Shown here: piece by piece, positions 14,243-62,735 of the stretch | Layout of the letters: every line of letters starts with the position of its first letter | How positions within the stretch are numbered: the first letter of the stretch is position 1 | Origin: an uncultured Bdellovibrionales bacterium | GTDB lineage: Bacteria > Bdellovibrionota_C > UBA2361 > SZUA-149 | DNA length: 64,000 nt | Direction of reading: 5' to 3' | NCBI GenBank assembly: GCA_965366815.1 | Contig: CBDUGV010000001.1 | Location: forward strand, 10,916 to 74,915 | The notes under the pieces: generated by a model | The model's database searches: none | What the model was told of the DNA's origin: nothing | The model's input: the letters and a program-made list of their open reading frames with translations, nothing else | Translations under genes and position numbers: made by a program

Positions 14243-14251
14243 CTATTTGAT

Positions 14252-15655: not shown

Positions 15656-15675
15656 GAGCTTACGCCTAACGAGAA

Positions 15676-15769
15676 TGGCGGAGACGTATGGGAATCGAAC
15701 CCACCCAGGACCCTAAAGCCCTACAACGGTTTTGAAGACCGAGAGCACCACCAGGCACCAAACGCCTCC
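15676..15769 (-). tRNA. selC: tRNA-Sec (anticodon UCA)
   Basis: Reverse complement reads GGAGGCGT...CTTCAAA (U33, UCA, A37)...long variable stem-loop...GGGTTCGATTCC T-loop...ACGTCTCC-G-CCA. 8-bp acceptor stem and about 94 nt length, typical of bacterial tRNA-Sec. Genomically encoded CCA. Confidence 0.8.
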
Positions 15770-22917: not shown

Positions 22918-22925
22918 GCGAGCTA

Positions 22926-25188: not shown

Positions 25189-25695
25189 TTAGAAATTCCC
25201 GATATCGAAGGGATCTGGCGGTCCAGCCAAATTGTCATCAAAAGGCACCGGGCCACCACCGCCCGCACCAGCACCGCCAGCACCGCCAGCACCACCGGCA
25301 CCACCGGCACCACCGGCACCACCACCGCCATTTCCGGTAGCACCACCGTTGGCCGCGCCTTGGGAACAGGTAGCAGCAGCATCTTCGAAATAAAGACTCA
25401 TCATTGCTGAAATCGAAAATGCGCCGATTCCAACGATCACAAAACTATAACTGGCTCGGAAATTTCCCATTGCCGCAGAAACGACGGCACCGACTCCGGC
25501 TGCCGACATCAAGAGAGCTCCAAGACTACCTTCCATATGGGCGCAAAGCTCTTGGATTGCCCATTCGGCACTCGCAAAGGCAAAAGCCACTTCTGGAAGT
25601 GACAGACCCAGCATTAACAGTCCGAAACAGAACACGGTAACGCGATGTATGCGCCCGATTGTTCTATCTAGTTCGGCAATTCGTTTTGATTTCAT
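25189..25695 (-). CDS. VirB2/TrbC-like pilin-like protein with Gly/Ala-rich linker and conserved C-terminal tail (paralog 4)
   Basis: GAGGAGG SD. Pilin-like core GALLMSAAGVGAVVSAAMGNFRASY...LYF. Then (GGA)n-type linker and tail PVPFDDNLAGPPDPFDIGNF. Confidence 0.6.
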   Translation of the reverse strand: MKSKRIAELDRTIGRIHRVTVFCFGLLMLGLSLPEVAFAFASAEWAIQELCAHMEGSLGALLMSAAGVGAVVSAAMGNFRASYSFVIVGIGAFSISAMMSLYFEDAAATCSQGAANGGATGNGGGGAGGAGGAGGAGGAGGAGAGGGGPVPFDDNLAGPPDPFDIGNF

Positions 25696-30800: not shown

Positions 30801-33800
30801 CTTCGGCCAGCATCCAAAGAAGCGATCGCACATGGGCCAGAGTTTGTTCTACGCGACGCTCAACCGCCTCGCTCGAAAATGAACTTCCCCGTGCCTCAAG
30901 TGCTAAAAGCTCCCGACAGACTCCTTTTCGCGGCGATGGCATATCGAGATCGCTGCGGTTGGGCTGCGACAAATCTATGATCCCCCCTCTCGCGGGCAGT
31001 GTCTCAAAGCATTGGCGTAGGGCAGCTGCATAGAGAGGCAACTGCAAGCTCTTTTGCGAATCTATATCTCGCAAAGTAGCTGCCCCCCCGGTCTTATAGT
31101 CCCATATCGCCAGGGGCGTACCGCTGCCTTGATCTACGACAATGTGCCGATCGATACGGTCAATGCATCCAGTCACTTCAAGGCTAAGCCCAATGTCAGC
31201 CTCTGGCTGAACGAGCAACGCTGGTGCATCTTCGCTGAGCCCAAATCGGTATTCGACCCGTTCTGGAACAGTTTGGAGAAAGTCGCGCTGGTAAATCAGG
31301 GCGGCAAACAACGGCCCTTGTCTCCCCTGAACTGCCGATGGTCGCTTGTTCGACTGCAGACCCGCTAAGAGCCAATTCTTTCGGCTGCGGAGCAAGGGGT
31401 GAGAATCCCAATCGAGAGGATGATCGGCAAACGCAGCCATGGCTATTGCGATCATCCTCTTGCAGGCCTGCTCGAGGTCTCCTTGCAAGGACTCGGGCGA
31501 AAAGCCTTGGCCTGGATCAAAGAATCGCTCAAGGCAGCGATGGACAATCGTTCCAACATACAGAGGTATCTCCGACTCAAAGCCGCTGGAGCGTGGTTGG
31601 AGACCTAAGAGTTCTTGGAATAAAAACTGGAGGGGATTCTCGGAAAGCAATTCTAGCGATGAAACAGAAAGCCGAAGCGAAAGAGCTCCCTCTTGCTGTT
31701 CTAGCCCGGCATTCTTCGCCCTAATTCGACAGAGCCGCATCGAACTTTCAGGCCCTAATTGGCCGTCATATTCGGTAAAATGGGGCGAAAGGCGTCCGCG
31801 CAGTAGCGCCAGGGCCCGCGGACAGGGTTCTACCGGAGCAAGACTTCCATCAGTGGCGATCACCTCGCTATCCGCATCTGCGAGTAACCTGAGTTCATTT
31901 CTTGCGAGCTGATCTGGAAATAATGAGGCGAGATCCGTGAGAAAGGTCATCGGTAAGACCTCATTCTGCTCATCGCGATCTGGCACGCTAAAGACGAGCT
32001 CTTTCGCATTCCGGCATAGCTGCGCTAGGAGCCAATGACTCTCTTGGACGCGGGAGACAGCCCGACCCCGTCTATTCAACTGGTTGGTCACCACATCGAG
32101 CTCGCCATTCTCCGGGGCTGAGCCGCCTTGGATCCAAGCGTTGAGTTCGCGGGCACTGCATCCCAAAAGTACAACCGCAGGGCTAAAGATCGTCCGCCCA
32201 TCGAGAAACTCAGTTAGGCGCACCGCATCGGGCTGGAAATCTACCTGCAGCTGAATCCGATCAACATACTCTAGAAGATGGCTGACAAAACGAGCTAAAC
32301 TCACCCGTTCGAAATCAGCAGCGGCATAGCGAAAGACCTGTTGCACTTGGCGTGTTGCTCGAACCAGTTGCTGGAGGGGCGCTTGCGGATTTGAGGAAGA
32401 GCTACGCAAAGTCGATAGACGAAGGCGTATTCGATTGTAGTACTGCCGAATAGCAGCAGCATACTGCGGTGCCGTTTCATTTGCTGACTGTAATTTCGCG
32501 GCATACTCAGCTTCCTGCTCGAAAATCGCCAAACTAGCTATACCGCTGAGCAGAAGCTCTACTTCTCGGCGAACAGAGTCTCGCAGCTCGCGGCCGCCAC
32601 GAGTTTCTTGATATGAACGCGGACTGTCGCAGCAGTACCGCAATCGACCGACCAATTGCTGGAGCAGATGCTCGCTCCCAGCGCTTTCTTCCGATGGAAG
32701 GAGTTCGAGCGCGACTATGCCCTGCTCTATACAAGAAAATAACGGTCGAACGCCGGCAACCTGGGCTACTAAGAAGTCCTCAACACTGCGATTTCCTCGC
32801 TGTTTCTGTAGCTGCGGATGCTCGAGTATCGGATGAACTACCTCACGATGCCGCTTTAAGAAGCGCTTGGTCGACGCAGTAGCAAGCTTTGGCGAAGCAG
32901 CAAACGGGTGGCTAAAAAGAGCCTCGGCGCTCGCAAGATTCTGCTCTTGGAGCCAAGAAATCAGTTTTCGAAGGAAATCAGCCGGTAGCGTGCCAGCTAA
33001 GGCGGTGCCCTTGGTAATTTGCAACGGGATATTGAGACGATCAAACTCAGCTTCCATTAAGGAGCGATATGGTTCAACGTCAAACGCCAAGATGTGATAC
33101 TCAGCTGGTTGCGCCCTGCCTGCGGTTCGAGCTGCGGCTATCGCCTCAGCCAAGCGGCGGGCTTCGTCACGGCGCTCAGCAGAACGCCAAATAGCAACGC
33201 CGTCCAAGGACGCCCCCAGGTCAGTTTCCCCCAATAGCTTAGAGTCGATCAATTGATCGACAAGCAGGGCTCGATCGGGAACGGTACTGGGGTGTTGCTC
33301 GACTGCCGCGATTTTAGCGCTTGAAGTGCTAAGGAAATACCGCAGCGATTGGAGATAGGCTTCCGAAGGCTTTGGAAATTGTACGCTATCGCTCGCAGTG
33401 CTTTGATCGACTTTTTGCGATCCCCTCGCTGGTTCTGCCTCAAAAAGTGATGTTTGAACCGCTGTGGATGAAGAGCTGCGATTGGCTGTTTCAGTGGTCT
33501 TCGTATCAGAATTTCTCGTATGATCACGATACTCGTTTTGGCAAACGACTGCATCGACAGAGACTCGGAACTCGCAAAGATGAGAGAGTCTATCATAGAC
33601 ACTTTGCTCTAGCGGAAACACCTGCATTGGCCGAAACAAGAGTATGGTGTCTACGTCAATCGTCTCTACACGGTTGAGCGCGACGAGCAACTGTTCGAGC
33701 ACGGCTGGCCCATCGTAGGCGCCGACGAACGATTGTACTTCCTGATAGGCAGCTATCAGCGAAATGAGTTCTTCTCGACGGTCGAGAATAACATTGCCGT

Positions 33801-34188
33801 GCTCATCAATTGCACTTCGAATCAGCTGATCTTCGGTCTGGTGGAGGCGAACCGAATCGAGAAACCGCAAAAGCCGGTCTATCTCCTTCGGAATGCCGTG
33901 AATGGCGCTCGATAGCTCCTGACGAAGCAAGGGGAACTGGCTCTGCTCAGTAATGAGCCGCCACAGCGCAGTTCTTCGAGCCGGATGATGCAGGCGTCTG
34001 ACGGACTGCTCGGGTCTAAGCTCTCGTAGCAAACGCACTGCGGCATCAGCAGTCGTTAAGACAGTAGGCTCTAGCCCAGCATTTCGACGAAGCGATTCAA
34101 CTACGAATCGAGTCTCGCATAAAATCCAGGAATCGGAGGAAAGACTCTCAAACAGCTTCATCACTCCGCGACTAAAATTCTTCGGCAA
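27856..34188 (-). CDS. 2110-aa fused AddB-like (RecB-family PD-(D/E)xK nuclease) + AddA/UvrD-like SF1 helicase
   Basis: RecB nuclease motifs GCIDRIDRH...DYKTGG...QLPLY at about aa 1000. Then UvrD motifs: AGAGSGKT (I), TFTEKAAEE (Ia), VDEFQDTD (II), GDAQQSIYGFRG (III), YRSQ (IV), IHGSKGLE (V), VACTRAK (VI). No second nuclease domain at the C-terminus. Confidence 0.8.
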   Translation of the reverse strand: MPKNFSRGVMKLFESLSSDSWILCETRFVVESLRRNAGLEPTVLTTADAAVRLLRELRPEQSVRRLHHPARRTALWRLITEQSQFPLLRQELSSAIHGIPKEIDRLLRFLDSVRLHQTEDQLIRSAIDEHGNVILDRREELISLIAAYQEVQSFVGAYDGPAVLEQLLVALNRVETIDVDTILLFRPMQVFPLEQSVYDRLSHLCEFRVSVDAVVCQNEYRDHTRNSDTKTTETANRSSSSTAVQTSLFEAEPARGSQKVDQSTASDSVQFPKPSEAYLQSLRYFLSTSSAKIAAVEQHPSTVPDRALLVDQLIDSKLLGETDLGASLDGVAIWRSAERRDEARRLAEAIAAARTAGRAQPAEYHILAFDVEPYRSLMEAEFDRLNIPLQITKGTALAGTLPADFLRKLISWLQEQNLASAEALFSHPFAASPKLATASTKRFLKRHREVVHPILEHPQLQKQRGNRSVEDFLVAQVAGVRPLFSCIEQGIVALELLPSEESAGSEHLLQQLVGRLRYCCDSPRSYQETRGGRELRDSVRREVELLLSGIASLAIFEQEAEYAAKLQSANETAPQYAAAIRQYYNRIRLRLSTLRSSSSNPQAPLQQLVRATRQVQQVFRYAAADFERVSLARFVSHLLEYVDRIQLQVDFQPDAVRLTEFLDGRTIFSPAVVLLGCSARELNAWIQGGSAPENGELDVVTNQLNRRGRAVSRVQESHWLLAQLCRNAKELVFSVPDRDEQNEVLPMTFLTDLASLFPDQLARNELRLLADADSEVIATDGSLAPVEPCPRALALLRGRLSPHFTEYDGQLGPESSMRLCRIRAKNAGLEQQEGALSLRLSVSSLELLSENPLQFLFQELLGLQPRSSGFESEIPLYVGTIVHRCLERFFDPGQGFSPESLQGDLEQACKRMIAIAMAAFADHPLDWDSHPLLRSRKNWLLAGLQSNKRPSAVQGRQGPLFAALIYQRDFLQTVPERVEYRFGLSEDAPALLVQPEADIGLSLEVTGCIDRIDRHIVVDQGSGTPLAIWDYKTGGAATLRDIDSQKSLQLPLYAAALRQCFETLPARGGIIDLSQPNRSDLDMPSPRKGVCRELLALEARGSSFSSEAVERRVEQTLAHVRSLLWMLAEGSFLQPLEADIDRYSQHAALHCRDEVLLEKKWKSREEATSEEATSKEPLAEIRAGSLVPRDFLQNQHSSRELRLSAEQQAACRLEQPICLSAGAGSGKTAVLRARVLELIHRGESIESLLAVTFTEKAAEEIRQRVEQALSGVLASNSYRGSVLSDVERGRFTQAKAAVSQAQISTIHGLATRIVAMDLRLSGLEHFNRILTSSEQQTQLGAAVRAVVRSEDGRETAERVLDFGVHARTLQQQLARLALSPQLLDDLNEVLDESKRSYLTELVSEYQKRKRGELQQEHAAYFALWLQDLAEWLAGKGGEMPADQLAAHRYLEAEVEKLLKADDTDWLSQIASLRLYIQENQGFAKRKSKHTPRNFMNDVRDTLGTLQEQRAVFTLSDVAERQAWQLVQGVAQLAAMVRQRYQRLKAGKQLVDFDDLISGAHRMLCQEVEPRYRARQAAVCQRLQQQFHHIMVDEFQDTDRQQWELLSKIAGLCGTELAADTLFLVGDAQQSIYGFRGGDSRVFDLAREQLERVGGISLSLDDNYRSQPEIVDFVNDLFEKLFAVDFATDEACKVPKALSPTALRAQQMHAKTPVNTAGEPKVQQLWKPYEKGAGRQENSDTGEAKFLAAHLKQLLSSFDTDGRSSQYPELSLHSGSPQIAVLTRTVRQLSRVANALEAEKLEFSISHSSGFYELAEIAQLEHVLRLLVHPDDAIALVGVLRSPLMGLSDRHIVDLYAELNGAWITLEGEHTSPSELLSFVQGRLADWQRLSRMVPCSNLLEHIARTSGLREAYVAVGKGEAFGNIERFIDRLASAERKNECGVNPQDALNWLINERVAGSDAPTANSVSHPIVLSTIHGSKGLEYPMVVLPFLAGRQRREHDFIKSEIPDGSGRSMLGVRIEDPTDDYRRKKTLTMQLLEENQQAMYYSEERRVFYVACTRAKHYLLLSLREGGKFEAEQKELAELSDSAKAERCRTSDAPAFWLRALGIR

Positions 34189-35619: not shown

Positions 35620-35830
35620 CTATCCTGTTGCGAACACTTTTGCCCATTTTTGTCGCGGATCGACGCAAATCGCTAATGACCGAGACCCATCCAATCAGGA
35701 AAGCCCTTTTCTTCCCCGGCAGCAAGCATTGCAATTAACTAGCTGATTTTACTACAAAAACCCTCACCTCCGCAGAGCTCAAGCCAAAGGGTTTCACGAG
35801 AAACCGTTTCCGACCTACGGTTGCGGTTAT

Positions 35831-38250: not shown

Positions 38251-39135
38251 CTATCTCGTGGTTAGGCGCTCGTATAACTCAGTGAGATCTTCGTCACTGT
38301 AGAATTCGAGGGTCAGGCGACCAGCAGCCTTATTCCCAGCCTTTCGCACAAGATGAACCTTGGTTCCAAGCGCCTTCTGGAGATCTCCGACGATTCTTTG
38401 ATCTTCAACGCTGAGCTTCTTTGCGGGTGATTTCCTAGCTGTACCACCGTGGGACACCACCTCTAATTGGGACGCACCGCTGATGATGTCCTCCAATTGA
38501 GACCTAGTGATATCTGCCAGCTGGGGAATGATTTTCTTGCGTTCTGCTTTATCCTCGAGCTGTGCGAGTAACAGCACCTTGCTTTCAGAAGCACCAGCAA
38601 TCAAAGCAGCCTGCAGATCGTCGGGTAAAGACAGCACATCGAGACTGCGCTGAACCACTGACTTAGAGATACCCAGCTTCTTAGAAATATCGCGAATGCT
38701 CAAACTGAACTTTTCTCGCAGATGCCCTATCGCTAGAGCCCGTTCCATCGGAGCCAGATTCTCTCGTTGGATGTTCTCTACAAGCTGCTTACCGAGGACA
38801 GTCGCATCATCTCCTACTTCCGAATCGATGATCGCGGGAATTGTCGACAGACCAAGAGCTCGGGACGCTCTCAACCTTCGCTCACCGGCGATAAGGCGAT
38901 AGGTCCCACCAGGAGTGACCTGAACGAGCACTGGGCTGAGTACACCGTATTCTTTAATAGAATTGGCAAGTTCAGCTAAGGACTCATCGCTAAATACTCG
39001 CCGGGGCTGATCCGGGTCTACATCGATGTCTACGACTGAAAGATAACGAAACGGACTTCCAGACCGAGCCCGTTCCGCCAAGCTAGGGCCACCAAACAAA
39101 GGGTTGTTATCCAGAGTTACAGGCTTACGACTCAT
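38251..39135 (-). CDS. parB: ParB/Spo0J partition protein
   Basis: ParB box GERRLRASRALGL, HTH region; 294 aa. Overlaps parA stop. Confidence 0.85.
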   Translation of the reverse strand: MSRKPVTLDNNPLFGGPSLAERARSGSPFRYLSVVDIDVDPDQPRRVFSDESLAELANSIKEYGVLSPVLVQVTPGGTYRLIAGERRLRASRALGLSTIPAIIDSEVGDDATVLGKQLVENIQRENLAPMERALAIGHLREKFSLSIRDISKKLGISKSVVQRSLDVLSLPDDLQAALIAGASESKVLLLAQLEDKAERKKIIPQLADITRSQLEDIISGASQLEVVSHGGTARKSPAKKLSVEDQRIVGDLQKALGTKVHLVRKAGNKAAGRLTLEFYSDEDLTELYERLTTR

Positions 39136-39892
39136 TATTCAGCACCTCATCAGCTAGCTTCCGATAGTCTTCAGCTCCCGGACTACGAGTATCGTATTTA
39201 AAAATAGAAGTGCCGCGTGCGGGTGCTTCTGCTAAGGCCACGTTCGTCCGTATTATTGTATCGAACACTAAATCCCCAAAGTATTCCCGAACTGTGTCGG
39301 CAACGGTTTTAGAGAGTCGACGGCGGGCGTCGTGGAGGCAAAGCAACACTCCCCCAACTTCTAAGCTGGGGTTATAGGCTGTTCTCACTTGGTCGATGGT
39401 GTCGAGAAGTTGTCGCACTCCGTGCAAAGCCAGAAACTCACTTTGCACCGGAACAATAACCTTGGACGCAGCGACCAAGCCGTTTAAAGATAGGAGGCCA
39501 AGAGATGGTGGGCAGTCCACCATTATATAGTCGAACTTATCCTGGACATCCGCCAGCGCTTGCCGAAGTAGTAGCTCTCGACCAATCACTCCACCAAGGT
39601 CTAAGTCGGCCGCACTGAGCAATAGACTAGCTGGGGCAAGAAAGAGATTCTCGTCTATCGTAACAATGATGTCCTCTATCTTACTCCCGTGTCGAAGGAC
39701 ATCATACATGCTGCCCTCACTACCGTCGTCGTCGGCAGAGTATCCGAGGTGGGCGGAGAGATTAGCCTGGGCATCGATATCAACGGCCAACACTCGCTTC
39801 CCTCGCTCGGCAAGCCCGGCGGCGAGATTCGCTGTGGTCGTAGTCTTACCAACGCCACCCTTCTGATTTACAATTGCATACGTACTTTGCAC
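39125..39892 (-). CDS. parA: ParA/Soj partition ATPase
   Basis: Deviant Walker A AIVNQKGGVGKTTT; 255 aa. Confidence 0.9.
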   Translation of the reverse strand: MQSTYAIVNQKGGVGKTTTTANLAAGLAERGKRVLAVDIDAQANLSAHLGYSADDDGSEGSMYDVLRHGSKIEDIIVTIDENLFLAPASLLLSAADLDLGGVIGRELLLRQALADVQDKFDYIMVDCPPSLGLLSLNGLVAASKVIVPVQSEFLALHGVRQLLDTIDQVRTAYNPSLEVGGVLLCLHDARRRLSKTVADTVREYFGDLVFDTIIRTNVALAEAPARGTSIFKYDTRSPGAEDYRKLADEVLNNES

Positions 39893-40197
39893 TGGAGGGT
39901 CACCATATAGAATTCTGGCTTGATAGGGTTCCGAGTCTTATGTCGGTACACGTGCTCTGACATAAGTAAACCAGCATACCGCAATTATCAAGGATTGAGC
40001 GCGAAGCTTTGGATTTTGGGAAAATCTAAGAAAATTGGTGGCTTGTACGACTTACTCCCAGGCCCGATAGAGGGGATGAAAGCTCTCTCAATCATCGATC
40101 TTAGCTTGGAAACACCCCCTACCCCGCGATCGCAAACCCGATTTTAATTAATCTTTTTAACTACTTAGCCAAATTCCTGGCTTAGTACCGAACGCGC

Positions 40198-40466
40198 CTC
40201 GTGTATTCAACTAAGTACATTTCCAAAAAAAGCTCGTGTATTGAAGTAAGGCTCGTGCTTTCGACTAAGTATTTTGCAAAAAAATCTTATCCACAGCTCA
40301 TGTCGAATACACTATCGAGCTTTCAACCCAAGTCCATCGTGTTTTGGACCAAAGAATCTCGCTTTCGAACTATAGTTCTATCGAGTTTTGGGCTAAGTCA
40401 TATCGTGTTTCGAACCCAAGTAGTATCGTGTTTCAGCCGAAGGATCCTCGTGTTTCGAAATAAAAA
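40198..40466. repeat. iteron array: about 11 direct copies of a 13-bp core (A/C)TCGTGTTTCGAAC spaced about 21-23 bp
   Basis: Copies begin near 40198, 40233, 40252, 40294 (weak), 40315, 40336, 40358, 40379, 40402, 40425, 40447. Flanked by AT-rich DNA, between divergent parAB and the RepA-like gene. Confidence 0.7.
40287..40295 (+). promoter_or_regulatory. consensus DnaA box TTATCCACA within the iteron region
   Basis: Exact 9-mer match to the DnaA box consensus. A single copy, as typical for iteron-plasmid origins. Confidence 0.5.
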
Positions 40467-40647
40467 TGCGCAGGTAAGGCTCTAGAATTACTTACTTATT
40501 TCCGGCTGTACTACAGTACTTAGATCAAAAAAGTACCTTGTAAAAACTAACAGTACTCTGTTAGGTATCCCAACATAACTTAAAGCAACTTAAAGTTGTT
40601 GTTGAATGATTTTGATTTAGAAAAAAGAAGCCCGATAGAAGCAGGAT

Positions 40648-42054
40648 ATGAACTTACCTCAGTTTGCAGAGGACAGCAGTATTTCTGAAGATCATCAGAG
40701 TTCCGAGAGTCGAAAGGCCAGGGGTCGTGATGGGGGATCGAATCAGAGCGCCAGTGTTGCATGGTCACGAGATGAGATGAATCTGGCGGAATTCCCGCTA
40801 GCGGTGCTCTCCACTCGAGTGAATCACAACATTAAGACGCTTGAGTTCACTGATACGCATAGAGCCCCTTCTGGTGAGCTAGTAGAGCGCCGCTGGATAA
40901 TCACCGGTGCTGACAAATTTGGACTTCCAACTTCGACTGACGACGACGTCGTGCTCGGATTGATGCGGCTCTCTATGTCCAAGGGATTTCGCGAGCGAAA
41001 AGTCTACTTTACTCGCTATGAATTGCTCAAGACACTGCGATGGAGCACTGAAGGGCGGAGTTATCAGCGACTGATCAAGTCGCTCGATCGTCTCAGCGGA
41101 GTGCGAATTCGTTCATCGAACTCGTTTTACGACAATTCCTCAAAGGCCTATCAGACCTGCAACTTTGGTATCATCGATGCTTATGAAATCAACGATGGTC
41201 GAAAGCATCCAGGCGGGGAAGGGGAGTTACCGAAGTCCTACTTCATTTGGAGCGAGCGAATTTTTGACTCCTTTAAGGCGGGCTACATCAAGAAGCTCAA
41301 TCTCGATCTCTATTTTCAACTAAATAGCGCAGTTGCACGGCGGCTCTACCGCTATCTCGACAAGCATTTTTACTATAAATCCAGTATCGAGCGTGTGTTA
41401 ATGCCATTTGCCTTCGAGAAAGTCGGGCTTTCTCGAAGCTATAAGTACGTCTCTAGTATTAAGCAGCAGCTCGAACCGGGTCTGGAAGAGCTCAAGAATG
41501 TCGGCTTTTTGCGAGGGTATGAATTCACGGGTCGTGGGAGTGCCGCGAAGATTCGCTTTTTCGCCGGGAATGGGAATGGGGCAGCTGCCGCGACCAGTAC
41601 GGGCAGTAGTGTTGCGCCAACTCCTGGACCAACACCACAGCCAGCTCAGCAGGTGGACGCCGCTTTGACTCCCGCTGCCTCCAGAGAGCAGAGTTTTGGT
41701 AATATTGCATCAGCTCGTAATCGCTTTGTAACTGGAGAGCATGCGACGAGCCATCCCTTGGTCCAGAAACTCGTTGAACGAGGTATGGCGTCACCACAAG
41801 CACATCGCTTGATAGCGAAGCAACCTACTGCACGCTATTCGCAAATCGAAAGAATTATTTGCTACTACGATCATCTCGTAGCCCAGCAGGACTACAAAGT
41901 ATCGAAAAACAAAGTTGGATTTCTCTACCGGGCAGTAGAGCGCTCTGATGAGTTTGTCCTACCAAAGGAGTTTTCGGGAGATGTCGCGACTCCGCGAAAA
42001 CGGTCGAATCGCCCTGAATTGAAGTTATTTAAGTCGAGTCGCCGAGGGGAGTAG
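40648..42054 (+). CDS. putative plasmid-type replication initiator (RepA-like)
   Basis: Immediately downstream of the iteron array and divergent from parAB. N-terminal domain with NLAEFPLAVLS, Pro/Thr-rich linker, basic C-terminal domain. Family not verified. Confidence 0.45.
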   Translation: MNLPQFAEDSSISEDHQSSESRKARGRDGGSNQSASVAWSRDEMNLAEFPLAVLSTRVNHNIKTLEFTDTHRAPSGELVERRWIITGADKFGLPTSTDDDVVLGLMRLSMSKGFRERKVYFTRYELLKTLRWSTEGRSYQRLIKSLDRLSGVRIRSSNSFYDNSSKAYQTCNFGIIDAYEINDGRKHPGGEGELPKSYFIWSERIFDSFKAGYIKKLNLDLYFQLNSAVARRLYRYLDKHFYYKSSIERVLMPFAFEKVGLSRSYKYVSSIKQQLEPGLEELKNVGFLRGYEFTGRGSAAKIRFFAGNGNGAAAATSTGSSVAPTPGPTPQPAQQVDAALTPAASREQSFGNIASARNRFVTGEHATSHPLVQKLVERGMASPQAHRLIAKQPTARYSQIERIICYYDHLVAQQDYKVSKNKVGFLYRAVERSDEFVLPKEFSGDVATPRKRSNRPELKLFKSSRRGE

Positions 42055-42058
42055 GCTA

Positions 42059-42547
42059 CTAGCTCTTAAAGGCATTTCTGTCTGCAGCCCAGTCGGCAAC
42101 GAGTAACTTCTTGCCAAATAGATTGTCTTTTGTGACAAGCCAGCCACTACCTGACCAAATCATTTCGATTTTGATCATCGGATATTTCTTGTTTTTGGAC
42201 GCTTTTCGCAGATACACGGTGGCTTCATCGCCATACCATTTCAGTTCTTCAACCTTAAGTCCGAGCAGCGGGTGCTCCTCTGCTGTCCAACGGTTCTGTA
42301 GACTTCGCACTTGTCGCAGGTACTCTTGCTTATCGATGTCGGCCTGTTTGAGAAAATCGGTCCAGAGAATCGATCCTCCAATCCTCGCTTCATCGGCATT
42401 CACTACATGTTTGACGTAATCGGCTGATACACGGATCAGCAGGGCACCGAGTTCTGGCCCTGGCGATTTGCCGGCAATGCTCGAACAAGCGGTTGTTGAA
42501 AATAACAACAAAGCTAGGAGAAGACGTATTACTGAAACTCTATTCAT
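42059..42547 (-). CDS. putative lipoprotein / secreted protein (hypothetical)
   Basis: Start at MNRVSVIRLLLALLLFSTTACSS (signal peptide with Cys). Track ORF starts further upstream. Confidence 0.45.
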   Translation of the reverse strand: MNRVSVIRLLLALLLFSTTACSSIAGKSPGPELGALLIRVSADYVKHVVNADEARIGGSILWTDFLKQADIDKQEYLRQVRSLQNRWTAEEHPLLGLKVEELKWYGDEATVYLRKASKNKKYPMIKIEMIWSGSGWLVTKDNLFGKKLLVADWAADRNAFKS

Positions 42548-43535
42548 TGACCTTTCGCTTTTGTGGGAGTGTATGGGGGACGTTCGAAGACTCGAGAATT
42601 TCAAGAGATCGAACGCGTTCTAACAGGTCTTCCATGAGGCTGCGGTTTACCGAAAGCAGTTCTCCTAAAATACCAAGAACTACCAGCAATACGGAGATTA
42701 CCAACATTGCACCAGCAATCACCAGTGATTGAATATGGCCCGCTCCGTCTCCAGTTACATAAAAGTAGATAAAGCGACTAAGCACTGCCAGGGCTGGAAC
42801 TGCAAATACCGCGCTCAATAAGGCAAAAGTCTTAAAAGGGGCATAGACCGCAGTCAATCGAAGTATAGTCGTCCCAGACTTTCCAACTTTGGCAAAAATG
42901 CTGGTAATTAGCCTGGAATCACGGGTTTTGTCGTTAACAGCAATTGGAACCCAGGCGATATCTAAACCTTTTTTGTGCGCCTGCATCAATGTGTCGACCG
43001 TGTAGGTATAGTTGGTCATTACATGAATCTTTAGTAAGGCACGGCGTGAATAAGCCCGAAAGCCACTCACTGCATCTCGCACCTGCTCTCCACAGAGCTG
43101 CGCGACGACACCGCTTCCAAAGCGCTGCAAAAAGCGCTTGAGCGGTGAAAATTCATCGATACAACCGGGATCGCGATCACCGATAGCCACATCAACCTCA
43201 CCATTGAGAATCGGCTGTAGCAAAGCGGGAATGGCCTCAGAGGGATATTGATTGTCGCCGTCGGTGTTGACCACAATATCCGCACCCTGTTGAAGAGCAT
43301 GATCGATGCCCGCCTTAAAGGCTCGTCCTAGCCATCGACGATTACGTCCTGGAATGCGTACTATATGATGAACTCCGAGCGAGCGGGCAATTTCTATAGT
43401 TCTGTCAGTTGAGCCATCATCGATAATTTGAAACTCAAGGATATCAACGCCGGGAATTGATCTGGGCATATTGGCGAAGACAAGTGGTAGCGTCTCAGCT
43501 TCGTTAAAACAGGGAATTTGAACTATTACTTTCAC
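42540..43535 (-). CDS. GT2 polyprenyl-phosphate glycosyltransferase (DPM1/ArnC/GtrB-like) with C-terminal TM helices
   Basis: IPCFNEAETLPLVFANM...IIDDGSTDRT...DGDNQ motifs. Two C-terminal hydrophobic helices. Confidence 0.8.
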   Translation of the reverse strand: MKVIVQIPCFNEAETLPLVFANMPRSIPGVDILEFQIIDDGSTDRTIEIARSLGVHHIVRIPGRNRRWLGRAFKAGIDHALQQGADIVVNTDGDNQYPSEAIPALLQPILNGEVDVAIGDRDPGCIDEFSPLKRFLQRFGSGVVAQLCGEQVRDAVSGFRAYSRRALLKIHVMTNYTYTVDTLMQAHKKGLDIAWVPIAVNDKTRDSRLITSIFAKVGKSGTTILRLTAVYAPFKTFALLSAVFAVPALAVLSRFIYFYVTGDGAGHIQSLVIAGAMLVISVLLVVLGILGELLSVNRSLMEDLLERVRSLEILESSNVPHTLPQKRKVNE

Positions 43536-43704
43536 TGCGTGGCTCGTTTGGGCTTGGGCAGAAAGGCCCCATGTTTTCCAGCAGGTAAATTAACGAGTTT
43601 AACGGTCAATTACAATAGAATCCGCCAGCAGGGTGCCGGTAGCATCGCTACCGGACCATGCAAGCGTATGAAATTAAAAGGATATCTTCGCTTTTATCTA
43701 GCTT

Positions 43705-43890
43705 TTATCTGAAGGAGGTCCAAACTATCACGAAGGTGAAAATCAGTGATAAGCCGACGACGAATCCGTTCGGACCAGCCAAAGCACTCATCCCATCCAT
43801 CAGGATTCCTACAGTGCTAGTAAGCGAAGTTATAATAGACTCCAATTCGCTGAGAAAATTGGAGATAAAGCTACTGAGAGTGTTCGACAT
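43705..43890 (-). CDS. small (61 aa) membrane protein, hypothetical
   Basis: Strong SD (GGAGG 7 nt upstream of ATG). Amphipathic N-terminus plus C-terminal TM FVVGLSLIFTFVIVWTSF. Confidence 0.4.
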   Translation of the reverse strand: MSNTLSSFISNFLSELESIITSLTSTVGILMDGMSALAGPNGFVVGLSLIFTFVIVWTSFR

Positions 43891-44043
43891 GACATTTCCT
43901 CCAATATTGCTCTAAGCCAACCATTTCAAAAGTGTGTATCTATAGTTCTATTGTACACATAAGTGTGTATAAGGGTCAAGGTGCGCTTCCTCCCCTCTGG
44001 CTCAAAACCCTAGATTTGGTATGGAATGTTAGAGCCTTAGCTC

Positions 44044-44667
44044 TTATTGGTCTTCATCGAACAGTTTGAGGAATTCAGCATATCCCTCTTTCTCAAGCTG
44101 TTCTTTGGGGATGAAGCGCAGGGCAGCGGAGTTGATACAATACCGCTGTCCGCTCGGTTTCGGACCGTCAGGGAATACATGTCCTAGGTGTGAATCAGAT
44201 TTCTTGCTGCGAACTTCGATGCGCGTCATGCCGTAACTCTTGTCTTTCACTTCGACAATGCTCTCTGCATCGAGTGGCGCAAAGAAGCTTGGCCAGCCAG
44301 TGCCTGAAACAAATTTCGTGGTCGAACTAAACAGAGGTTCCCCGGAAATAACATCAACATAAATTCCTGGCTTTTTGTTATCCCAGTACTCGTTAGAGAA
44401 TGGTCGCTCGGTGCCGTTTTCCCGAGTGATATGATACTGATCTGGGGTCAGGCGCTTCTTCAGTTCGTCATCACTTTCCATCACATACTCCTTGTAATGC
44501 GGTCTTTCTCTAGATTCCTTGGACGTCTCCAATCGAGATTGGTTCTCCGACTCAACCGATTTCGCCACACTTTGAGCTTTAGTACCGGCGTCATCTTCTC
44601 TAGAAGTGCAAGAAAGTGGAGCCGCTAAATAAAGCGAAGCAATAAGGGTACAGGCTATCGTTTTCAT
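44044..44667 (-). CDS. msrB: peptide methionine-(R)-S-oxide reductase, secreted/lipoprotein form
   Basis: MsrB motifs [44 protein letters not shown]-terminal signal peptide. Confidence 0.85.
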
Positions 44668-44702
44668 ATCTCACTTACCTCCACTAAAAAAGTTTCTGCT
44701 AC

Positions 44703-46109
44703 TTAGGCCTGTCGTACTGCGGAGAGGAACTTCAACAAAGACTGTATTTTACGCCCTAACCAGAGCTTTTGCACGTTGCGGTTGAGGAAAGTAACCGTCC
44801 GATGGCCGAAAGACGTCATTGCATAGGCTTGACCCCAGAGCATTTCTGCCTGTTGTCGGGCAACCAGCAGAGTTGGTCCGAGCCGATGCTGCCCCAATTT
44901 CCGCCACTCGATAAGCTCGGCAAGCGCCGTTTGGGAGTCCGGAGCAACCTTCTGTAGTTGATCGCGCAAACTCAGCAATTCCTCTCGCTCTGAACCAGCT
45001 TGCTCCGCCGCGGCCAAGAGTTTCTTGATCTTTGCAGCTTGAAGAGAAATCGTTTGTTCATAAGCAGCCGTATTATTCGAGTCGGCGTTCCTTCCTTGTT
45101 TGAGATCCTTTTTGAGTAGATCAATCTCTTCAAATCGCTTTCGATCCAGGGCTTGATAGTGGGTGAGCTCCGCTTGCAAATGCTGCAATTCCCGGGCGGC
45201 CTGACCCATGCGCTCAATCTCGAGACGTTCGTTCGTGTCGAGCAGCACGCTGTGCGTTTGCCGATTCGGAATTTCGCTCGGTGAGGCAATTGCATAGAGA
45301 AAGGTGCCCTCCGCCGAGGATGAATCACTCAATGAAGCGACGAGCCCAACTGGGTTCAGCCAATTAACAAACTTAGCATGCGTAAGTGATGGTGCCTCGG
45401 AATCTGTCTCAATTGGAAATATGCAGTTTGCCGATGCTCCAATCTGAGAATAGAGCTGCACATGGGCAAAACTCTGGCGAAGCAGGGAGCGGAACTCGTT
45501 TTTTGTGAGCTCATGTTCGTGAAACTCATTCGGCTCAGTTCTATGCTCTGCATAGATTTCTTTTTCCGGCGTACTGACAAGAAAAAGAGTTTTTTCGTGA
45601 AACGGGGACTCAGCAGAGGCAATTATCTTACAAAGTTGAGCTTGAGTCTCTGAGGGTACATGCTCAATGAACTCATGACACACCACTACGTCAATGCGCC
45701 TGTCTTTGATTGCCGATATCTGTGCAAGCTGCGTAGCATCGCCGCACACACATTGGATGTTATCGATGCCCGTTGTAGAAACACAGTCCTCCAACGCAGC
45801 TATGCATGTTTCACTGCGGTCGAGCGAGATCACCTGTTTGGCTCGCTCTGAGAGCAACACACTGCCATAGCCAATACCACACCCCAAATCGAGTACCGTG
45901 GTCGTGGAATCAATGAACTGCAATGCGAATGCATAGCGACTGTAGTGCTCATAACAGATCTCAACACCGGCTCCAGGGATATACTGCTCTCCGGTGAATG
46001 CCATTTTCCCCGAAAGCGCAGATATCGCCTTATCAAAACGAGTGGTCAACGGCGTGGTTCCTTCTGTCGTCGGCATGCTTCGTTGAGTATTGTCTTTACT
46101 CATAGCCAA
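44703..46109 (-). CDS. class I SAM-dependent methyltransferase with C-terminal coiled-coil domain
   Basis: Motif I VLDLGCGIGYGS. C-terminal 180 aa Ala/Glu/Leu/Gln-rich coiled coil. Overlaps upstream GT gene end. Confidence 0.7.
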   Translation of the reverse strand: MAMSKDNTQRSMPTTEGTTPLTTRFDKAISALSGKMAFTGEQYIPGAGVEICYEHYSRYAFALQFIDSTTTVLDLGCGIGYGSVLLSERAKQVISLDRSETCIAALEDCVSTTGIDNIQCVCGDATQLAQISAIKDRRIDVVVCHEFIEHVPSETQAQLCKIIASAESPFHEKTLFLVSTPEKEIYAEHRTEPNEFHEHELTKNEFRSLLRQSFAHVQLYSQIGASANCIFPIETDSEAPSLTHAKFVNWLNPVGLVASLSDSSSAEGTFLYAIASPSEIPNRQTHSVLLDTNERLEIERMGQAARELQHLQAELTHYQALDRKRFEEIDLLKKDLKQGRNADSNNTAAYEQTISLQAAKIKKLLAAAEQAGSEREELLSLRDQLQKVAPDSQTALAELIEWRKLGQHRLGPTLLVARQQAEMLWGQAYAMTSFGHRTVTFLNRNVQKLWLGRKIQSLLKFLSAVRQA

Positions 46110-47947
46110 GCTCTCTCTGTCATGCGGTTGTTCTTTTTCGCTGCGAGCATTCCCTGCCGCAGTTGATTCTCAATCGAATCCTTAAACGCTGGAAAAGAAT
46201 GTGCATCGGCTTGCTGTAGGCAGTTTACAAACAATCGTTGATGGAAGGCTTTTCCAAACTGAGAACTAAGCAAAGACATAACGTCTTTCAGTTCATCACT
46301 ATCAGCAAAGCAATACCCGCTCGAACCATGGTCGACGATGTGGGTCATACCGCCGCGATGATAGACAACTGGAATAACCCCGTAACAATAACAATCGAGT
46401 GCGACGAGGCCGAGGTGTTCACAGCGTTCTGGCTGCTTTCCGAAACCCAACTGAATTCCTGTAAATTGCCAAAGACAGGAGGCGCGCCGATAGAGCGATT
46501 GTAAAGAATCGAGCGTTGCATTGGTGCGTATTTCAACATTTGAGTCCTGAGCCGCAGCCCGGCATTGGTCGACGTAGGCATTGTTTTCGGGACTTTCATT
46601 GACGTAGCCAGCGACAACCATTCTCCATTCGGAGTCAAGTACACCCTGTTTGCTGAGTTTCACAAATTCCTGGATAGCTTCCAGTTGGCATTTGTTGTGC
46701 CCCTTGACGTTAAAGCGTCCCAAAGTGAGGATCAACTTTTCCTTCTCCCAAAGTGAGACTGGATTCCTACTGATATGTGTCTCAGAGATCGGAGGAGCGA
46801 GCACCGCGGTTGGTAAGTTCGCGGCCCAACGAGTGTGTACATACTCCCTGGTGAAGTGAGAATTACAAGCTATCAGCTGGTAACTACCCAAGCGCTGTAA
46901 CTCATCGGCGGTATTAGGGTAGGGGAACATAACCATGTACCAGCCCAGTGGCGCTGGGTTAGCCATATAAGAGCAAAAAGTGTGATTTACAAAAAGTTCT
47001 ATGTTCTCGGTGCGCACAGCTTCGGCGAGTTCTACTTCACTAAGGTACTGCTTCAAGGGCCAGTTGTACGACTTTGGAATTCCGAAAGAAGCTTTGAGCT
47101 TCTCCATACAGACGTCGGTGAGCTGAGCCGTGGCAAGGGTAACGTCGAATCCAAGATTGTCGAGTGCCAGTGCAAGGTCAAGCGTTGAACGCTCACCCCC
47201 TCCAGCGGTGTGAAAATAATTGTTGTATATCAGCGCACGCGGTCGATATCCGACTCTGCTACGAAACGCTGCCGTCGTGCGGTGAGTGACCCGTCGAGCT
47301 GCGAGTGCGACTGGTTTCTGCAGTTTGGCTCTAATTCTAATCGCGGAGCTGTGCTCAGAGGTTTGCAATCCAAGCACCTCGAATAGATGCTGGAAGGCTT
47401 GCAGTGTGTTGTTTTCAGCGTAGATAGTGCCGAAAAAACCACTTGGTATCAGTTGATCGAGAAAGGTTCTAAACGGATTCTTTGATAGGGGTGTGGATAG
47501 CGTTTGAGGCGTCAAATTCGCTTCATTCTGCAACTGACAGAGAAAGACTCCGTTCTTGAGAAGATTGAAATAGGCGCTGTGCAGTAGTGCGAGTAGACCA
47601 TTTTTTTCCGAAAGTCTACTTTCGAACAGATCTGATCCAAGCACTACCACAAAATCAAGCCAAGGTTCAGCATTTTCCAGCTGCGCAATTGCATCTGTTG
47701 AATCGTCAAATTGAATGACCGCAAGGTCTGCGATACGACCCAACTGCTCCCGAAGTGTTCTCTTCAAGGGAGAGTGAGTCAACAAGGCTACCTGCGGTCG
47801 CATCGTCGGATTACGATCAATCCACTCAGACAACAGCTGACACAAAACGCTCAGGAGATAAGGATCGGCAATACCTTTAAGAAGCTCCCAGTCAACTAGA
47901 GAAGCGGCCGCACTTGAATCGTTCCTGAAATTGAGCACCTGACTCAT
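46100..47947 (-). CDS. glycosyltransferase, GT-B fold (GT4-like) with N-terminal extra domain
   Basis: C-terminal region with E...G GT4-type motif EHLGLVALDCYCYGVIPVV; 615 aa. Confidence 0.55.
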   Translation of the reverse strand: MSQVLNFRNDSSAAASLVDWELLKGIADPYLLSVLCQLLSEWIDRNPTMRPQVALLTHSPLKRTLREQLGRIADLAVIQFDDSTDAIAQLENAEPWLDFVVVLGSDLFESRLSEKNGLLALLHSAYFNLLKNGVFLCQLQNEANLTPQTLSTPLSKNPFRTFLDQLIPSGFFGTIYAENNTLQAFQHLFEVLGLQTSEHSSAIRIRAKLQKPVALAARRVTHRTTAAFRSRVGYRPRALIYNNYFHTAGGGERSTLDLALALDNLGFDVTLATAQLTDVCMEKLKASFGIPKSYNWPLKQYLSEVELAEAVRTENIELFVNHTFCSYMANPAPLGWYMVMFPYPNTADELQRLGSYQLIACNSHFTREYVHTRWAANLPTAVLAPPISETHISRNPVSLWEKEKLILTLGRFNVKGHNKCQLEAIQEFVKLSKQGVLDSEWRMVVAGYVNESPENNAYVDQCRAAAQDSNVEIRTNATLDSLQSLYRRASCLWQFTGIQLGFGKQPERCEHLGLVALDCYCYGVIPVVYHRGGMTHIVDHGSSGYCFADSDELKDVMSLLSSQFGKAFHQRLFVNCLQQADAHSFPAFKDSIENQLRQGMLAAKKNNRMTERAWL

Positions 47948-49326
47948 CCTTTATCCGGTAGATGGTGAGGAAACGCTTTGAGACGTTTTCCGGGCTGGAT
48001 AAAGAGGTTCTGGAGACGATTTTTCGCAAAATAAGGGAATCGCTTGATGTATCGACAATAGGCGGTCAAATGAGGCTTATAGGACAGCGTCCCATCAATT
48101 TTGAAAGTTTGAAACTCTTGGAAGGCGAGCTTCTTACATTCTTGTTTCTTTGCCTGCCAGCCCTTCTGACTCATCATTTTGCTCGCAAAGATCAAATGCG
48201 AGCAGGCAACGTTCTTATTAAAGTAGTCAGAGAATTCAACTCCACTGCCACAGTGTATATGTCGAAGAACCGACCGTGGAGCGTAGACGCATTTCCAGCC
48301 GGCAATGCGAGCGCGCAAGCAGAGGTCCGTATCTTCGTAATAGGCAAAATACTTCTCGTCGAATCCGCCAGTCTCCGTCCAAACCGCATCACGGACAAAC
48401 ATAGAAACACCGCAGATAGAGGCACATTCTTCCTCCTGATCGAAGCGTCCGTCGTCAGGCTGTAGAAATCCACGATCTCCCCCGTGCCAGCTCGGCGTAA
48501 CGAAGGAGCCGGCGTTTTGTACGAGACTTTGATATTGCTCTGGGAGTAGTTCGATTCGAACGGTTTCCGAATGGTGTCCGCTCACCGTTACCTCTAGAAT
48601 CTTCTCTTGCTTCGGAGCGCCAATGCGCACGCGCAGCTGATCTTCTGTCGGGTGGCGGTTTTCGAGTTGAAAGGAAATTGACGCCTTCTTGCTTGGGTCA
48701 ACAATCGGAACATAGAATATACTTTCTTGCGCGAGTGGGCAGCCGGCTTCTTCCTTAGAGTATGCATTCACCAACTTGCAGCGCTTCATTTCAGTTCGCA
48801 CATTTTGACCTTCAAAGGTCGAATGGAGAAATACACCGAATTCTCGATCATCGGGGAAGCCAAGCTCCGAGGGTCGATAGCAGTCATAGGTGCTTATAGT
48901 GAGCGGTACAAAATGGTCGTAGAACAGCGCTTTACTGCCAACGATGCCGACATCCGCATCGCGTTCCAGCACTTCGGCAGCACCGAGCAACCAGTTGTGC
49001 TCTACTTTCGTGTCGTTATTGAGCAACACATGCACATCTGCCTGGCGACCTTCCAGTGCGAGCTGCTTTTTTCTGGCAATCACACCGAGATTATTCCCCT
49101 TGGAAAAGCCGTAGTTGTTGCCAAGCGGGATATAGTTCACTTCGGGAAAATCCTTTGCCACAAGAGCTTGGGACCGGTCAGTTGACCCATTGTCGACTAC
49201 ATTGACGTTGAGAGAATTCGAGCCCAGCTCTACGCTGCGAAGACTCTTCAAACACTCAGGCAAAAAGACTGAGCCGTTGTAATTAAGTATATAAACCTCG
49301 AAGTGTGCCACCAGTTGCCTTTCCAT
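47944..49326 (-). CDS. family 2 glycosyltransferase with C-terminal extension
   Basis: VYILNYNGSVFL...VVDNGSTDRS and DxD. 460 aa. ATGA overlap with downstream gene. Confidence 0.8.
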   Translation of the reverse strand: MERQLVAHFEVYILNYNGSVFLPECLKSLRSVELGSNSLNVNVVDNGSTDRSQALVAKDFPEVNYIPLGNNYGFSKGNNLGVIARKKQLALEGRQADVHVLLNNDTKVEHNWLLGAAEVLERDADVGIVGSKALFYDHFVPLTISTYDCYRPSELGFPDDREFGVFLHSTFEGQNVRTEMKRCKLVNAYSKEEAGCPLAQESIFYVPIVDPSKKASISFQLENRHPTEDQLRVRIGAPKQEKILEVTVSGHHSETVRIELLPEQYQSLVQNAGSFVTPSWHGGDRGFLQPDDGRFDQEEECASICGVSMFVRDAVWTETGGFDEKYFAYYEDTDLCLRARIAGWKCVYAPRSVLRHIHCGSGVEFSDYFNKNVACSHLIFASKMMSQKGWQAKKQECKKLAFQEFQTFKIDGTLSYKPHLTAYCRYIKRFPYFAKNRLQNLFIQPGKRLKAFPHHLPDKG

Positions 49327-61937: not shown

Positions 61938-62735
61938 ATGCACTTCGATCCTTCGCTACCCGTAGAACATGATGTTCACGGCTATCATGCGCTTCACCTT
62001 GAGCAAGTGGCGCAGATGAGTGGCTGTGTGATCGGTGAAGTGGCTGACTTCCGTCACCGCCTTCAAACGATCCAAGCCGTTTCGCTTAACGAGTTCGGTC
62101 TGACCTTCATTGAAGGTTCGCATTCCTCTCAGTACGAAATGATTCCCGTTGGCGGAATCATCGGAACTTCCTCGGAAGACGATCGTAACTGGGATTTTTG
62201 TGATCAAGGCCTACCCACGGTGGAGCGTGAGCGCTACGTTTGGGACTACGCGAAGAAGATCCAACAGGGTCTTTTCTTGCTCAACACAGAGGCTCCCGAG
62301 CTCTATGTCCAAGAGTTTTGCGGCCTGTATTTTGTCACCTCGAACGGTCGACATCGTACTGCTGCGCTCAAAGGCATGGTTGGCTCGGAGCTTCACGTGA
62401 AAGCACGTGTGTCACGATGTACGTCCATTGATACGGTCATAGCCCGCGCTCCGTTGGGAACGGTTGAGTATCATGATGATACCATCCACTTTTCCGACGA
62501 GGCACTTGCTTCGCCTCTTACGTTTGAGAACTCTATTCCGGTTCTTGAGCAACGGCGTCGCGATGGGTTGTGGAGTGGTACACTCGTTGAGCTTGCTCAG
62601 GTTCCTCATCCATTCGGCGGTCCGGATCACATTCGAGCGGTTTGGCATTCGCCTACGCTCAATGTCCTCTGGGCTTTCGCAAAGGATTTGGAATTGGCTC
62701 AATCGGTGGTCAACGCAAGTGCTGCAGCTTCTTAG
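61938..62735 (+). CDS. hypothetical protein with possible ParB/sulfiredoxin-like nuclease (ParBc) motif
   Basis: FVTSNGRHRTAALKG resembles the DGxHR..A core of ParB-like nuclease domains. Weak. Confidence 0.3.
   Translation: MHFDPSLPVEHDVHGYHALHLEQVAQMSGCVIGEVADFRHRLQTIQAVSLNEFGLTFIEGSHSSQYEMIPVGGIIGTSSEDDRNWDFCDQGLPTVERERYVWDYAKKIQQGLFLLNTEAPELYVQEFCGLYFVTSNGRHRTAALKGMVGSELHVKARVSRCTSIDTVIARAPLGTVEYHDDTIHFSDEALASPLTFENSIPVLEQRRRDGLWSGTLVELAQVPHPFGGPDHIRAVWHSPTLNVLWAFAKDLELAQSVVNASAAAS

Follow-up and report, generated by a model that had tools for sequence, protein, structure and literature searches.

What does an array of short direct repeats do between parA and a gene for a RepA-like protein, and what kind of replicon carries it? 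We addressed these questions for positions 40198 to 40466 of a 64,000-nucleotide stretch of DNA from an uncultured Bdellovibrionales bacterium (the whole stretch is called the window here). An earlier note on this DNA had proposed an iteron origin with a RepA-like protein and, by implication, a plasmid. The origin is supported by a PF10134 rep gene, by a conserved 22-bp phasing, and by a switch in strand composition. The implied plasmid gave way to a chromosome-like replicon, since the window carries housekeeping genes and a relative of the locus lies, with conserved synteny, on a contig of at least 1.87 Mb. We conclude that the array is very probably where the initiator binds in an iteron-type (theta, bidirectional) origin with divergent parAB, on a large, vertically inherited, chromosome-like Bdellovibrionota replicon and not on an accessory plasmid.

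The array lies within a 755-bp intergenic region, with parA to its left and rep to its right. The features of the locus are as follows.

38251 to 39135, minus strand: parB, with ParB_N, HTH_ParB, and ParB_C domains and a GERRLRA motif (Pfam; TIGR00180, 150.6 bits against a cut-off of 58)
39125 to 39892, minus strand: parA, a 255-aa Walker ATPase of the short Soj type, with transcription directed away from the origin (Pfam AAA_31, 189 bits)
39937 to 39966, no strand assigned: 30-bp imperfect palindrome with the centre CACGTG, some 50 bp before the start of parA (repeat search)
40062 to 40071, minus strand: GCCCGATAGA, an inverted iteron half-site, the reverse complement of TCTATCGGGC (family half-site enrichment)
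40198 to 40270, plus strand: left iteron triplet, with units at 40198, 40233, and 40252 and spacings of 35 and 19 bp (19.7 to 22.4 bits, leave-one-out position weight matrix [PWM])
40287 to 40295, plus strand: perfect DnaA box TTATCCACA
40297 to 40313, plus strand: degenerate iteron-like unit CTCATGTCGAATACACT, recognized by eye only
40314 to 40465, plus strand: phased array of seven iterons at 22 to 23 bp, starting at 40314 to 40447 (direct reading, repeat search, and PWM)
40466 to 40647, no strand assigned: AT-rich conserved non-coding block, putative unwinding element and rep promoter/leader (GC content; conservation in 66 loci)
40630 to 40639, minus strand: inverted half-site GCCCGATAGA, second copy, 9 nt before the start codon of rep (repeat search)
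40648 to 42054, plus strand: rep, a 468-aa initiator (Pfam PF10134, "replication initiator protein A")

The repeat array and its intergenic region

Positions 40198 to 40466 hold nine statistically solid and two degenerate copies of a 19-nt unit, (A/C)TCGTGyTTyGAAcyAAG, which agrees with the "about 11 copies" counted by the earlier note. All lie on the plus strand and start at 40198, 40233, 40252, 40297, 40314, 40336, 40358, 40380, 40402, 40425, and 40447, with start-to-start distances of 35, 19, 45, 17, 22, 22, 22, 22, 23, and 22 bp. The spacing of 21 to 23 bp that had been claimed for the whole array describes the right seven units (22 to 23 bp) and not the left ones (35, 19, 45, and 17 bp). 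An iteron origin is expected to contain at least three direct repeats of 17 to 22 bp in one orientation at about two helical turns, and here seven such units and the triplet were found.

Each unit was scored with a 19-nt PWM in a leave-one-out test against 127,342 outside positions (both strands, 64 kb). The nine solid units spanned 12.5 to 25.3 bits; eight of them exceeded every outside position, and the ninth, at 40425, was exceeded by only three. The units at 40297 and 40358 failed an ungapped PWM match, the latter through a 1-nt deletion that leaves TTTCGAAC and the 22-bp register in place. When the PWM was run over the 64 kb, the array scored 19.5 to 25.6 bits and the best outside position 15.5 bits; the motif is therefore local and not dispersed. 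This disposes of a dispersed repeat family, against which the earlier note had asked for a check, as the motif was found nowhere else in the 64 kb on either strand.

Stock repeat finders under-call the array because its copies have diverged: TRF called only 40401 to 40459 (2.6 copies), and a 12-mer search allowing up to two mismatches matched only four array units. A general repeat finder returned one family with five array copies and several smaller families, above the limit of four copies that the earlier note had set for such a program, and the PWM gives nine solid units. A CRISPR array, which that note had discounted, is also at odds with units that abut at a 22-bp period without unique spacers; an Rfam scan of the window gave no CRISPR match, and no cas gene stood among the annotated neighbors. 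A 94-aa open reading frame (ORF) on the plus strand (40201 to 40485) spans the array; the repeats themselves almost certainly account for it, as an artefact.

To the right of the array the DNA is clearly AT-rich (GC 0.28 to 0.35 at 40500 to 40650, against about 0.50 for the window), to the left only to a modest degree (GC 0.37 at 40140 to 40199), so that the AT-rich stretches first described on both sides hold in full for the right side alone. An AT-rich element next to the iterons, as is usual at such origins, is present here by composition and by conservation: about 120 nt of non-coding DNA between the last iteron and rep are conserved in 66 loci. In the window, the AT-rich block has two 13-mers, GTACyyTGTWArr, at 40533 to 40545 and 40553 to 40565, and a doubled AACTTAAAG at 40577 to 40595; the conserved block of the window's clade has two GTACyyTGTWA 13-mers and a doubled ACTTAAAG. 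We infer from these features that the block may serve as unwinding element and rep control region. A search of the DNA from the array to rep gave no sigma-70-like promoter for rep. A structured RNA was also considered for the conserved block and rejected, with a consensus energy of just -0.69 kcal/mol in the window's clade and no matching Rfam family.

The palindrome upstream of parA holds a lone iteron-like unit (39949 to 39967; PWM, 11.0 bits), and a lone iteron stands at the equivalent position in four related loci (L010, L013, L002, and L012). Its place near the parA start suggests a par or rep operator or a looping site. In the family, the inverted half-site CACGATA is 14-fold enriched, and 51 of its 52 copies lie upstream of the phased array. 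The inverted sites of the window are only the two weaker GCCCGATAGA copies and the lone palindromic unit; the GCCCGATAGA copy at 40630 to 40639 may have an autoregulatory role.

The DnaA box reported by the earlier note at 40287 to 40295 was confirmed as an exact TTATCCACA and as the sole perfect copy in 64 kb. It has no counterpart in the three closest relatives (63 to 67% Rep identity), and among 74 family origins a perfect box occurs in just one further locus. Boxes with at most one mismatch were not enriched in these 74 origins (15 observed versus 16.6 in shuffled sequence), and the window contains seven of them in 64 kb versus 9.6 expected, with no cluster. Conservation of the box was rejected on account of its absence from the closest relatives and the lack of family enrichment. 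Since the box is neither conserved nor enriched, its role in the origin is unproven, and it may be a lineage-specific addition or a chance occurrence. A cyanobacterial source of the DNA, raised by a GCGATCGC in the intergenic region, was rejected, since HIP1 is not enriched (4 copies versus 1.9 expected). GATC occurs in the intergenic region only four times.

The initiator and its relatives

Rep matches PF10134 over residues 41 to 246 with 67.3 bits (gathering threshold, 27); a Pfam match to TrfA was sub-threshold (E value of 0.007). Proteins of the PF10134 family are plasmid initiators encoded beside iteron origins, and PF10134 origins with iterons and inverted remote boxes occur in Planctomycetes and Azospirillum (10.1101/2024.01.22.576637; 10.64898/2026.09.14.751567). 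After the PF10134 domain, the window protein has a linker that is disordered and then a helical C-terminal domain (about residues 366 to 431), which is conserved, contains an invariant GFLYRA motif, and gave no informative relative in structure comparison. The best structural matches of a Rep model of moderate quality (mean pLDDT, 68.9) were RctB, which ranked first, pi, RepE, and RepA, all of them winged-helix iteron initiators with a WH1-WH2 fold. On this model, the gene adjoining the array is predicted to encode a WH1-WH2 Rep initiator, as is expected beside an iteron origin. The protein database contained 911 Rep homologues at an E value of ≤1e-10. Those in PLSDB were distant (about 27 to 38% identical, mostly from planctomycete plasmids), and no DNA near-identical to the window was found there.

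Relatives of the locus were sought by tblastn in one-genome-per-species GTDB contigs; 225 were found, and the best 80 were taken. These best 80 Reps are 45 to 74% identical to that of the window, come from 80 different assemblies, and belong nearly all to metagenome-assembled genomes (MAGs) labelled Bdellovibrionota, Bdellovibrionales, or Oligoflexia. Wherever a locus extends upstream of rep, the order is parB, parA, an intergenic region of 450 to 1500 bp, and rep. The whole layout, with parB beside parA, 22-bp-phased TCGTG-core repeats, the AT-rich block, and rep, recurs in about 70 related genomes, and ParA, which is 57 to 80% identical across related loci, is always divergent from rep.

In 74 intergenic regions, TCGTG was found on the rep strand 454 times versus about 56 expected (8-fold). 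It was spaced at 22 bp in 130 cases, at 23 bp in 30, and at 21 bp in 11, with multiples at 44 to 45 and 66 to 67 bp, and 50 of the 74 loci had at least two successive spacings of 21 to 23 bp. The logo of 253 phased units is bipartite, TCGTG-N4-GA-N3-AAA, a shape that would fit a two-domain reader. An independent set of loci from JGI metagenomes, the longest on a 149-kb contig, again gave a spacing peak at 22 to 23 bp, and the layout there was limited to Reps at least 44% identical to that of the window. The spacing of the left triplet (35/36 plus 19/20 bp) is kept in the three closest relatives (63 to 67% Rep identity), and L085 and L086 have it. Iterons within one locus are quite diverged. 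Variable blocks specific to a locus were considered and rejected: the block differs as much within loci (3.18 of 6 positions) as between them (3.30), with no specificity signal.

Similar repeats accompany more distant rep genes. On the Isosphaeraceae plasmid pEP7_04, four 22-bp CCGTGGTTTGA repeats (AAAyCACCGTGGTTTGAGGGAT) lie 130 to 245 bp upstream of the PF10134 gene and no parAB is adjacent, which places the iterons with rep and not with parAB. Plasmid pOJF2_1 has nine repeats, the reverse complement of which contains ATCGTG.

In many assemblies a contig ends within the origin region or shortly before it (L003, L004, L010, L027, L029, L030, L035, L036, L039, L043, L044, L050, and L064), and the L081 contig starts 268 nt upstream of rep. 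The Rep protein of the window is also encoded on contigs of 10.4 and 1.8 kb, both of which end at the origin region. The origin module may partly explain these breaks.

By analogy with RK2, pPS10, R6K, and Vibrio ori2, winged-helix Rep monomers (from 40648 to 42054) would bind the bipartite 17- to 19-bp iterons, TCGTG-N4-GA-N3-AAG, and with seven units phased at 22 bp the bound Rep monomers would all lie on the same face of the helix. The nucleoprotein complex so formed would melt the AT-rich block at 40466 to 40647, which would also be the loading site of the host helicase. Regulation, by autorepression, looping, or handcuffing, is the probable role of the left triplet, of the inverted half-sites, and of the lone iteron at the parA promoter.

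The replicon that carries the origin

For GC skew at third codon positions (GC3), genes were sorted into four classes by strand and by their place left or right of the array. The window gave -0.073 (left, plus strand), +0.051 (left, minus strand), +0.029 (right, plus strand), and -0.022 (right, minus strand), with the sign that is predicted for the leading strand in all four classes. The cumulative G-C curve of the window is V-shaped, with a descent that ends at about 40 kb and a depth that none of 5,000 block shuffles reached. Its minimum is broad and flat over 40 to 50 kb, so the skew alone places the origin no better than to within about 5 to 10 kb. Pooled over about 85 loci, with parA, parB, and rep left out, the same four classes gave -0.078, +0.035, +0.047, and -0.054 (per-gene Mann-Whitney P value of 1.3e-6). 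The skew switch is the signature of an origin, not of a terminus, and is a property of the family. It reflects long-term use as a bidirectional origin and is common to any bidirectional origin, DnaA-dependent oriC included. The window genes just right of rep lie on the minus strand, head-on to the fork.

The housekeeping genes of the window are dxs (DXP synthase), uppS (undecaprenyl-diphosphate synthase), a polyprenyl synthase gene (ispA), a class II aminoacyl-tRNA synthetase gene, panB (ketopantoate hydroxymethyltransferase), selA and selB (SelA and SelB), and tRNA-Sec. Its genes combine two marks of a chromid, plasmid-type replication/partition and core or housekeeping functions. In the relative L083, rep lies at 584 to 591 kb of a 1.87-Mb contig, JAXLVP010000002.1 of assembly GCA_046328905.1, and the order to its left is that of the window: nuclease-helicase, nucleotidyl transferase, sigma-54 response regulator, polyprenyl synthase, parB, parA, and rep. 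Genes for MsrB, a zinc-ribbon protein, and the tRNA synthetase are common to the right-hand side of the window and its closer relatives. Further contigs that bear the module reach 709 kb in assembly JBMNIF01, 336 kb in JBIIHQ01, and 322 kb.

Several neighboring genes were noted in passing. The nuclease-helicase (27856 to 34188, minus strand) is a 2,110-aa ORF with PD-(D/E)XK nuclease and UvrD-type helicase domains, an AddAB-like fusion that L083 has at the same position (2,056 aa). A tandem pair of Ser/Thr protein kinases whose C-terminal parts are ankyrin repeats (21094 to 24671, plus strand) lies about 16 kb left of the origin, and a similar pair stands immediately right of rep in L085 (7618 to 11282), which suggests rearrangement around the origin or paralogues. 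A complete selenocysteine cluster of selB, selA, and tRNA-Sec (ARAGORN; Rfam, 75.4 bits) occupies 12323 to 15769 on the minus strand. The undecaprenyl-diphosphate synthase domain forms residues 384 to 604 of a 631-aa ORF (5894 to 7789, minus strand) whose N-terminal 380 or so residues have no Pfam match; this ORF may have a mis-called start or be a fusion. A block of glycosyltransferase and methyltransferase genes (42540 to 49326, minus strand) directly right of rep is missing from L086, where MsrB follows rep almost directly, and this points to a variable island adjoining the origin. A CACCACCAG-type tandem repeat of period 9/18/21 (25254 to 25348) lies inside small minus-strand ORFs that have no Pfam match, and its coding strand would give a low-complexity Trp/Gly-rich stretch.

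Which large replicon the module drives can be read in two main ways. The stronger, to which we give an even chance, is a conserved secondary chromosome (chromid) beside a primary chromosome with DnaA/oriC, of the kind found in Vibrio (Chr2), Azospirillum, and Deinococcus. The characterized large replicons with winged-helix or PF10134 initiators are all secondary, RctB is the best structural match of Rep, and parAB and rep flank the iteron origin in an arrangement that resembles Vibrio ori2. Nearly all free-living bacteria have DnaA, which also counts for this reading. However, cultured Bdellovibrionota genomes measure about 3 to 4 Mb, and a second replicon with a contig of 1.87 Mb or more would be large in such a phylum. 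Conserved DnaA boxes, which most chromid and iteron origins have, are lacking in this family, and our literature search found no report of multipartite Bdellovibrionota.

Possible, if doubtful, is that the module serves as origin for a sole, primary chromosome, where a plasmid-derived winged-helix Rep-iteron module took over from DnaA/oriC in free-living (or predatory) bacteria and DnaA was lost or became auxiliary. Housekeeping genes with deep flanking synteny, one locus per genome in 80 assemblies (the best 80 of the 225 relatives), and contigs of up to 1.87 Mb argue for it, although its prior is low. With an approximate E. coli DnaA query, tblastn detected no DnaA-like ORF in the window or within 3 to 10 kb of rep in 84 loci, and Pfam scans of the larger window ORFs gave no DnaA. 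Neither the DnaA-box cluster nor the linked dnaA/dnaN of a DnaA-dependent oriC was found in the window (84 loci were covered for DnaA), and DnaA boxes are not conserved in the family.

The partition genes bear on the same reading. ParA is of the short Soj type, and ParB fits a chromosomal-type model. However, the best PLSDB matches of ParA and ParB (46 to 48%) mix mislabelled chromosomes (Bacillus soj) with true plasmids; ParA is 48% identical to Bacillus soj, and true plasmid ParAs are equally similar, so ParA similarity does not tell chromosomal from plasmid ancestry. Within 3 kb of rep, none of 80 loci has a canonical parS at up to two mismatches, and no recurrent palindrome was found near parAB in the family. 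The window contains three parS-like sites where about 0.2 would be expected in 64 kb, none of them more than 27 kb from the origin: the palindrome GGTTTCACGAGAAACC at 35790 to 35805, with one mismatch in the 14-bp core, and sites at 13764 to 13777 and 62390 to 62403, with two mismatches each. They give a weak hint of a chromosomal-type partition zone; against this, the 22-kb L083 locus has no parS-like site.

A plasmid integrated into the chromosome, with its origin silent or occasionally used, is improbable. The Rep family is plasmid-derived, and two-origin integrated replicons are reported in Vibrio fusion strains, but the same housekeeping synteny is found in genomes whose Reps are just 53 to 67% identical, and the origin-type GC3 skew switch is family-wide. 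Synteny and skew together disfavor a silent integrated plasmid, and no integrase or mobile-element genes flank the module. The least probable reading, that the repeats are a ParB-bound centromere or a pure copy-control/incompatibility array and not an initiation site, can appeal to the place of the array immediately upstream of parAB, to plasmid centromeres that are direct-repeat arrays, and to the regulatory look of the left triplet and lone iteron, but an HTH/CTP-motif ParB such as this one binds palindromic parS, whereas the iteron logo lacks dyad symmetry and so the form of a 16-bp palindromic parS, in pEP7_04 the rep gene has 22-bp CGTG-core repeats and no parAB beside them, and the array here adjoins a conserved AT-rich block and the skew switch.

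The preferred reading is that of an iteron origin on a large chromosome-like replicon. Its mechanism would be an ordinary one for iteron origins; unusual is the setting of the module, which is found once per genome, in a conserved housekeeping neighborhood, in species-level Bdellovibrionota genomes that number at least 80 (225 by tblastn). Our literature search found no description of Bdellovibrionota chromids, of dnaA loss, or of such a replicon. If the replicon is a chromid, it would be an ancient and unnoticed secondary chromosome in a phylum for which we found no earlier multipartite genome; if it is the primary chromosome, it would be one of the rare natural chromosomes whose replication is not driven by DnaA/oriC. 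The motif TCGTG-N4-GA-N3-AAR at 22-bp phasing, with rep as a marker gene, could be used to locate origins in these MAGs.

Comparison with known systems

The closest functional analogue of the window origin is Vibrio cholerae ori2, with RctB and parAB2. RctB has no sequence homology to the window Rep, which belongs to PF10134, and the 11/12-mers and 39-mers of ori2 differ from 17- to 19-bp iterons at 22-bp phasing. The window, from a different phylum, also has no sign of Dam/GATC dependence, with four GATC in the intergenic region.

RK2/RP4 oriV, with TrfA, resembles the window origin in its one-orientation direct iterons, spaced at 22 to 23 bp and split into groups, in the order of DnaA box, iterons, and AT-rich region with repeated 13-mers, and in the weak, below-cut-off Pfam match of the window Rep to TrfA (E value of 0.007). 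RK2, a broad-host-range accessory plasmid, differs from the window in its four DnaA boxes, in the unrelated sequence of its 17-bp iterons, and in a trfA gene that is not adjacent to oriV. The iteron origins of the small plasmids pPS10 (RepA), F (RepE), and R6K (pi) have an inverted repeat that overlaps the rep promoter, whereas the inverted half-sites of the window family lie mostly upstream of the array, and the window Rep has an extra conserved C-terminal helical domain.

The replicons of the PF10134 (RPA) type, namely planctomycete plasmids, Azospirillum secondary replicons, and Thermus/Deinococcus megaplasmids, have initiators of the same Pfam family as the window Rep. They share with the window iterons upstream of rep and linked ParAB, their remote inverted Rep boxes may have counterparts in the inverted half-sites of the window family, and a CGTG core is common to the iterons of the window, pEP7_04, and pOJF2_1. 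In Azospirillum, every group has at least one DnaA box (10.64898/2026.09.14.751567), whereas the boxes of the window family are not conserved. The window Rep is about 27 to 38% identical to any plasmid Rep in PLSDB, and the module of the window type, unlike other PF10134 replicons, occupies a conserved housekeeping neighborhood in at least 80 species-level genomes. Judged by its sequence, the window origin would belong mechanistically to the class of iteron origins that includes RK2, pPS10, F, R6K, and P1, and to the PF10134 family.
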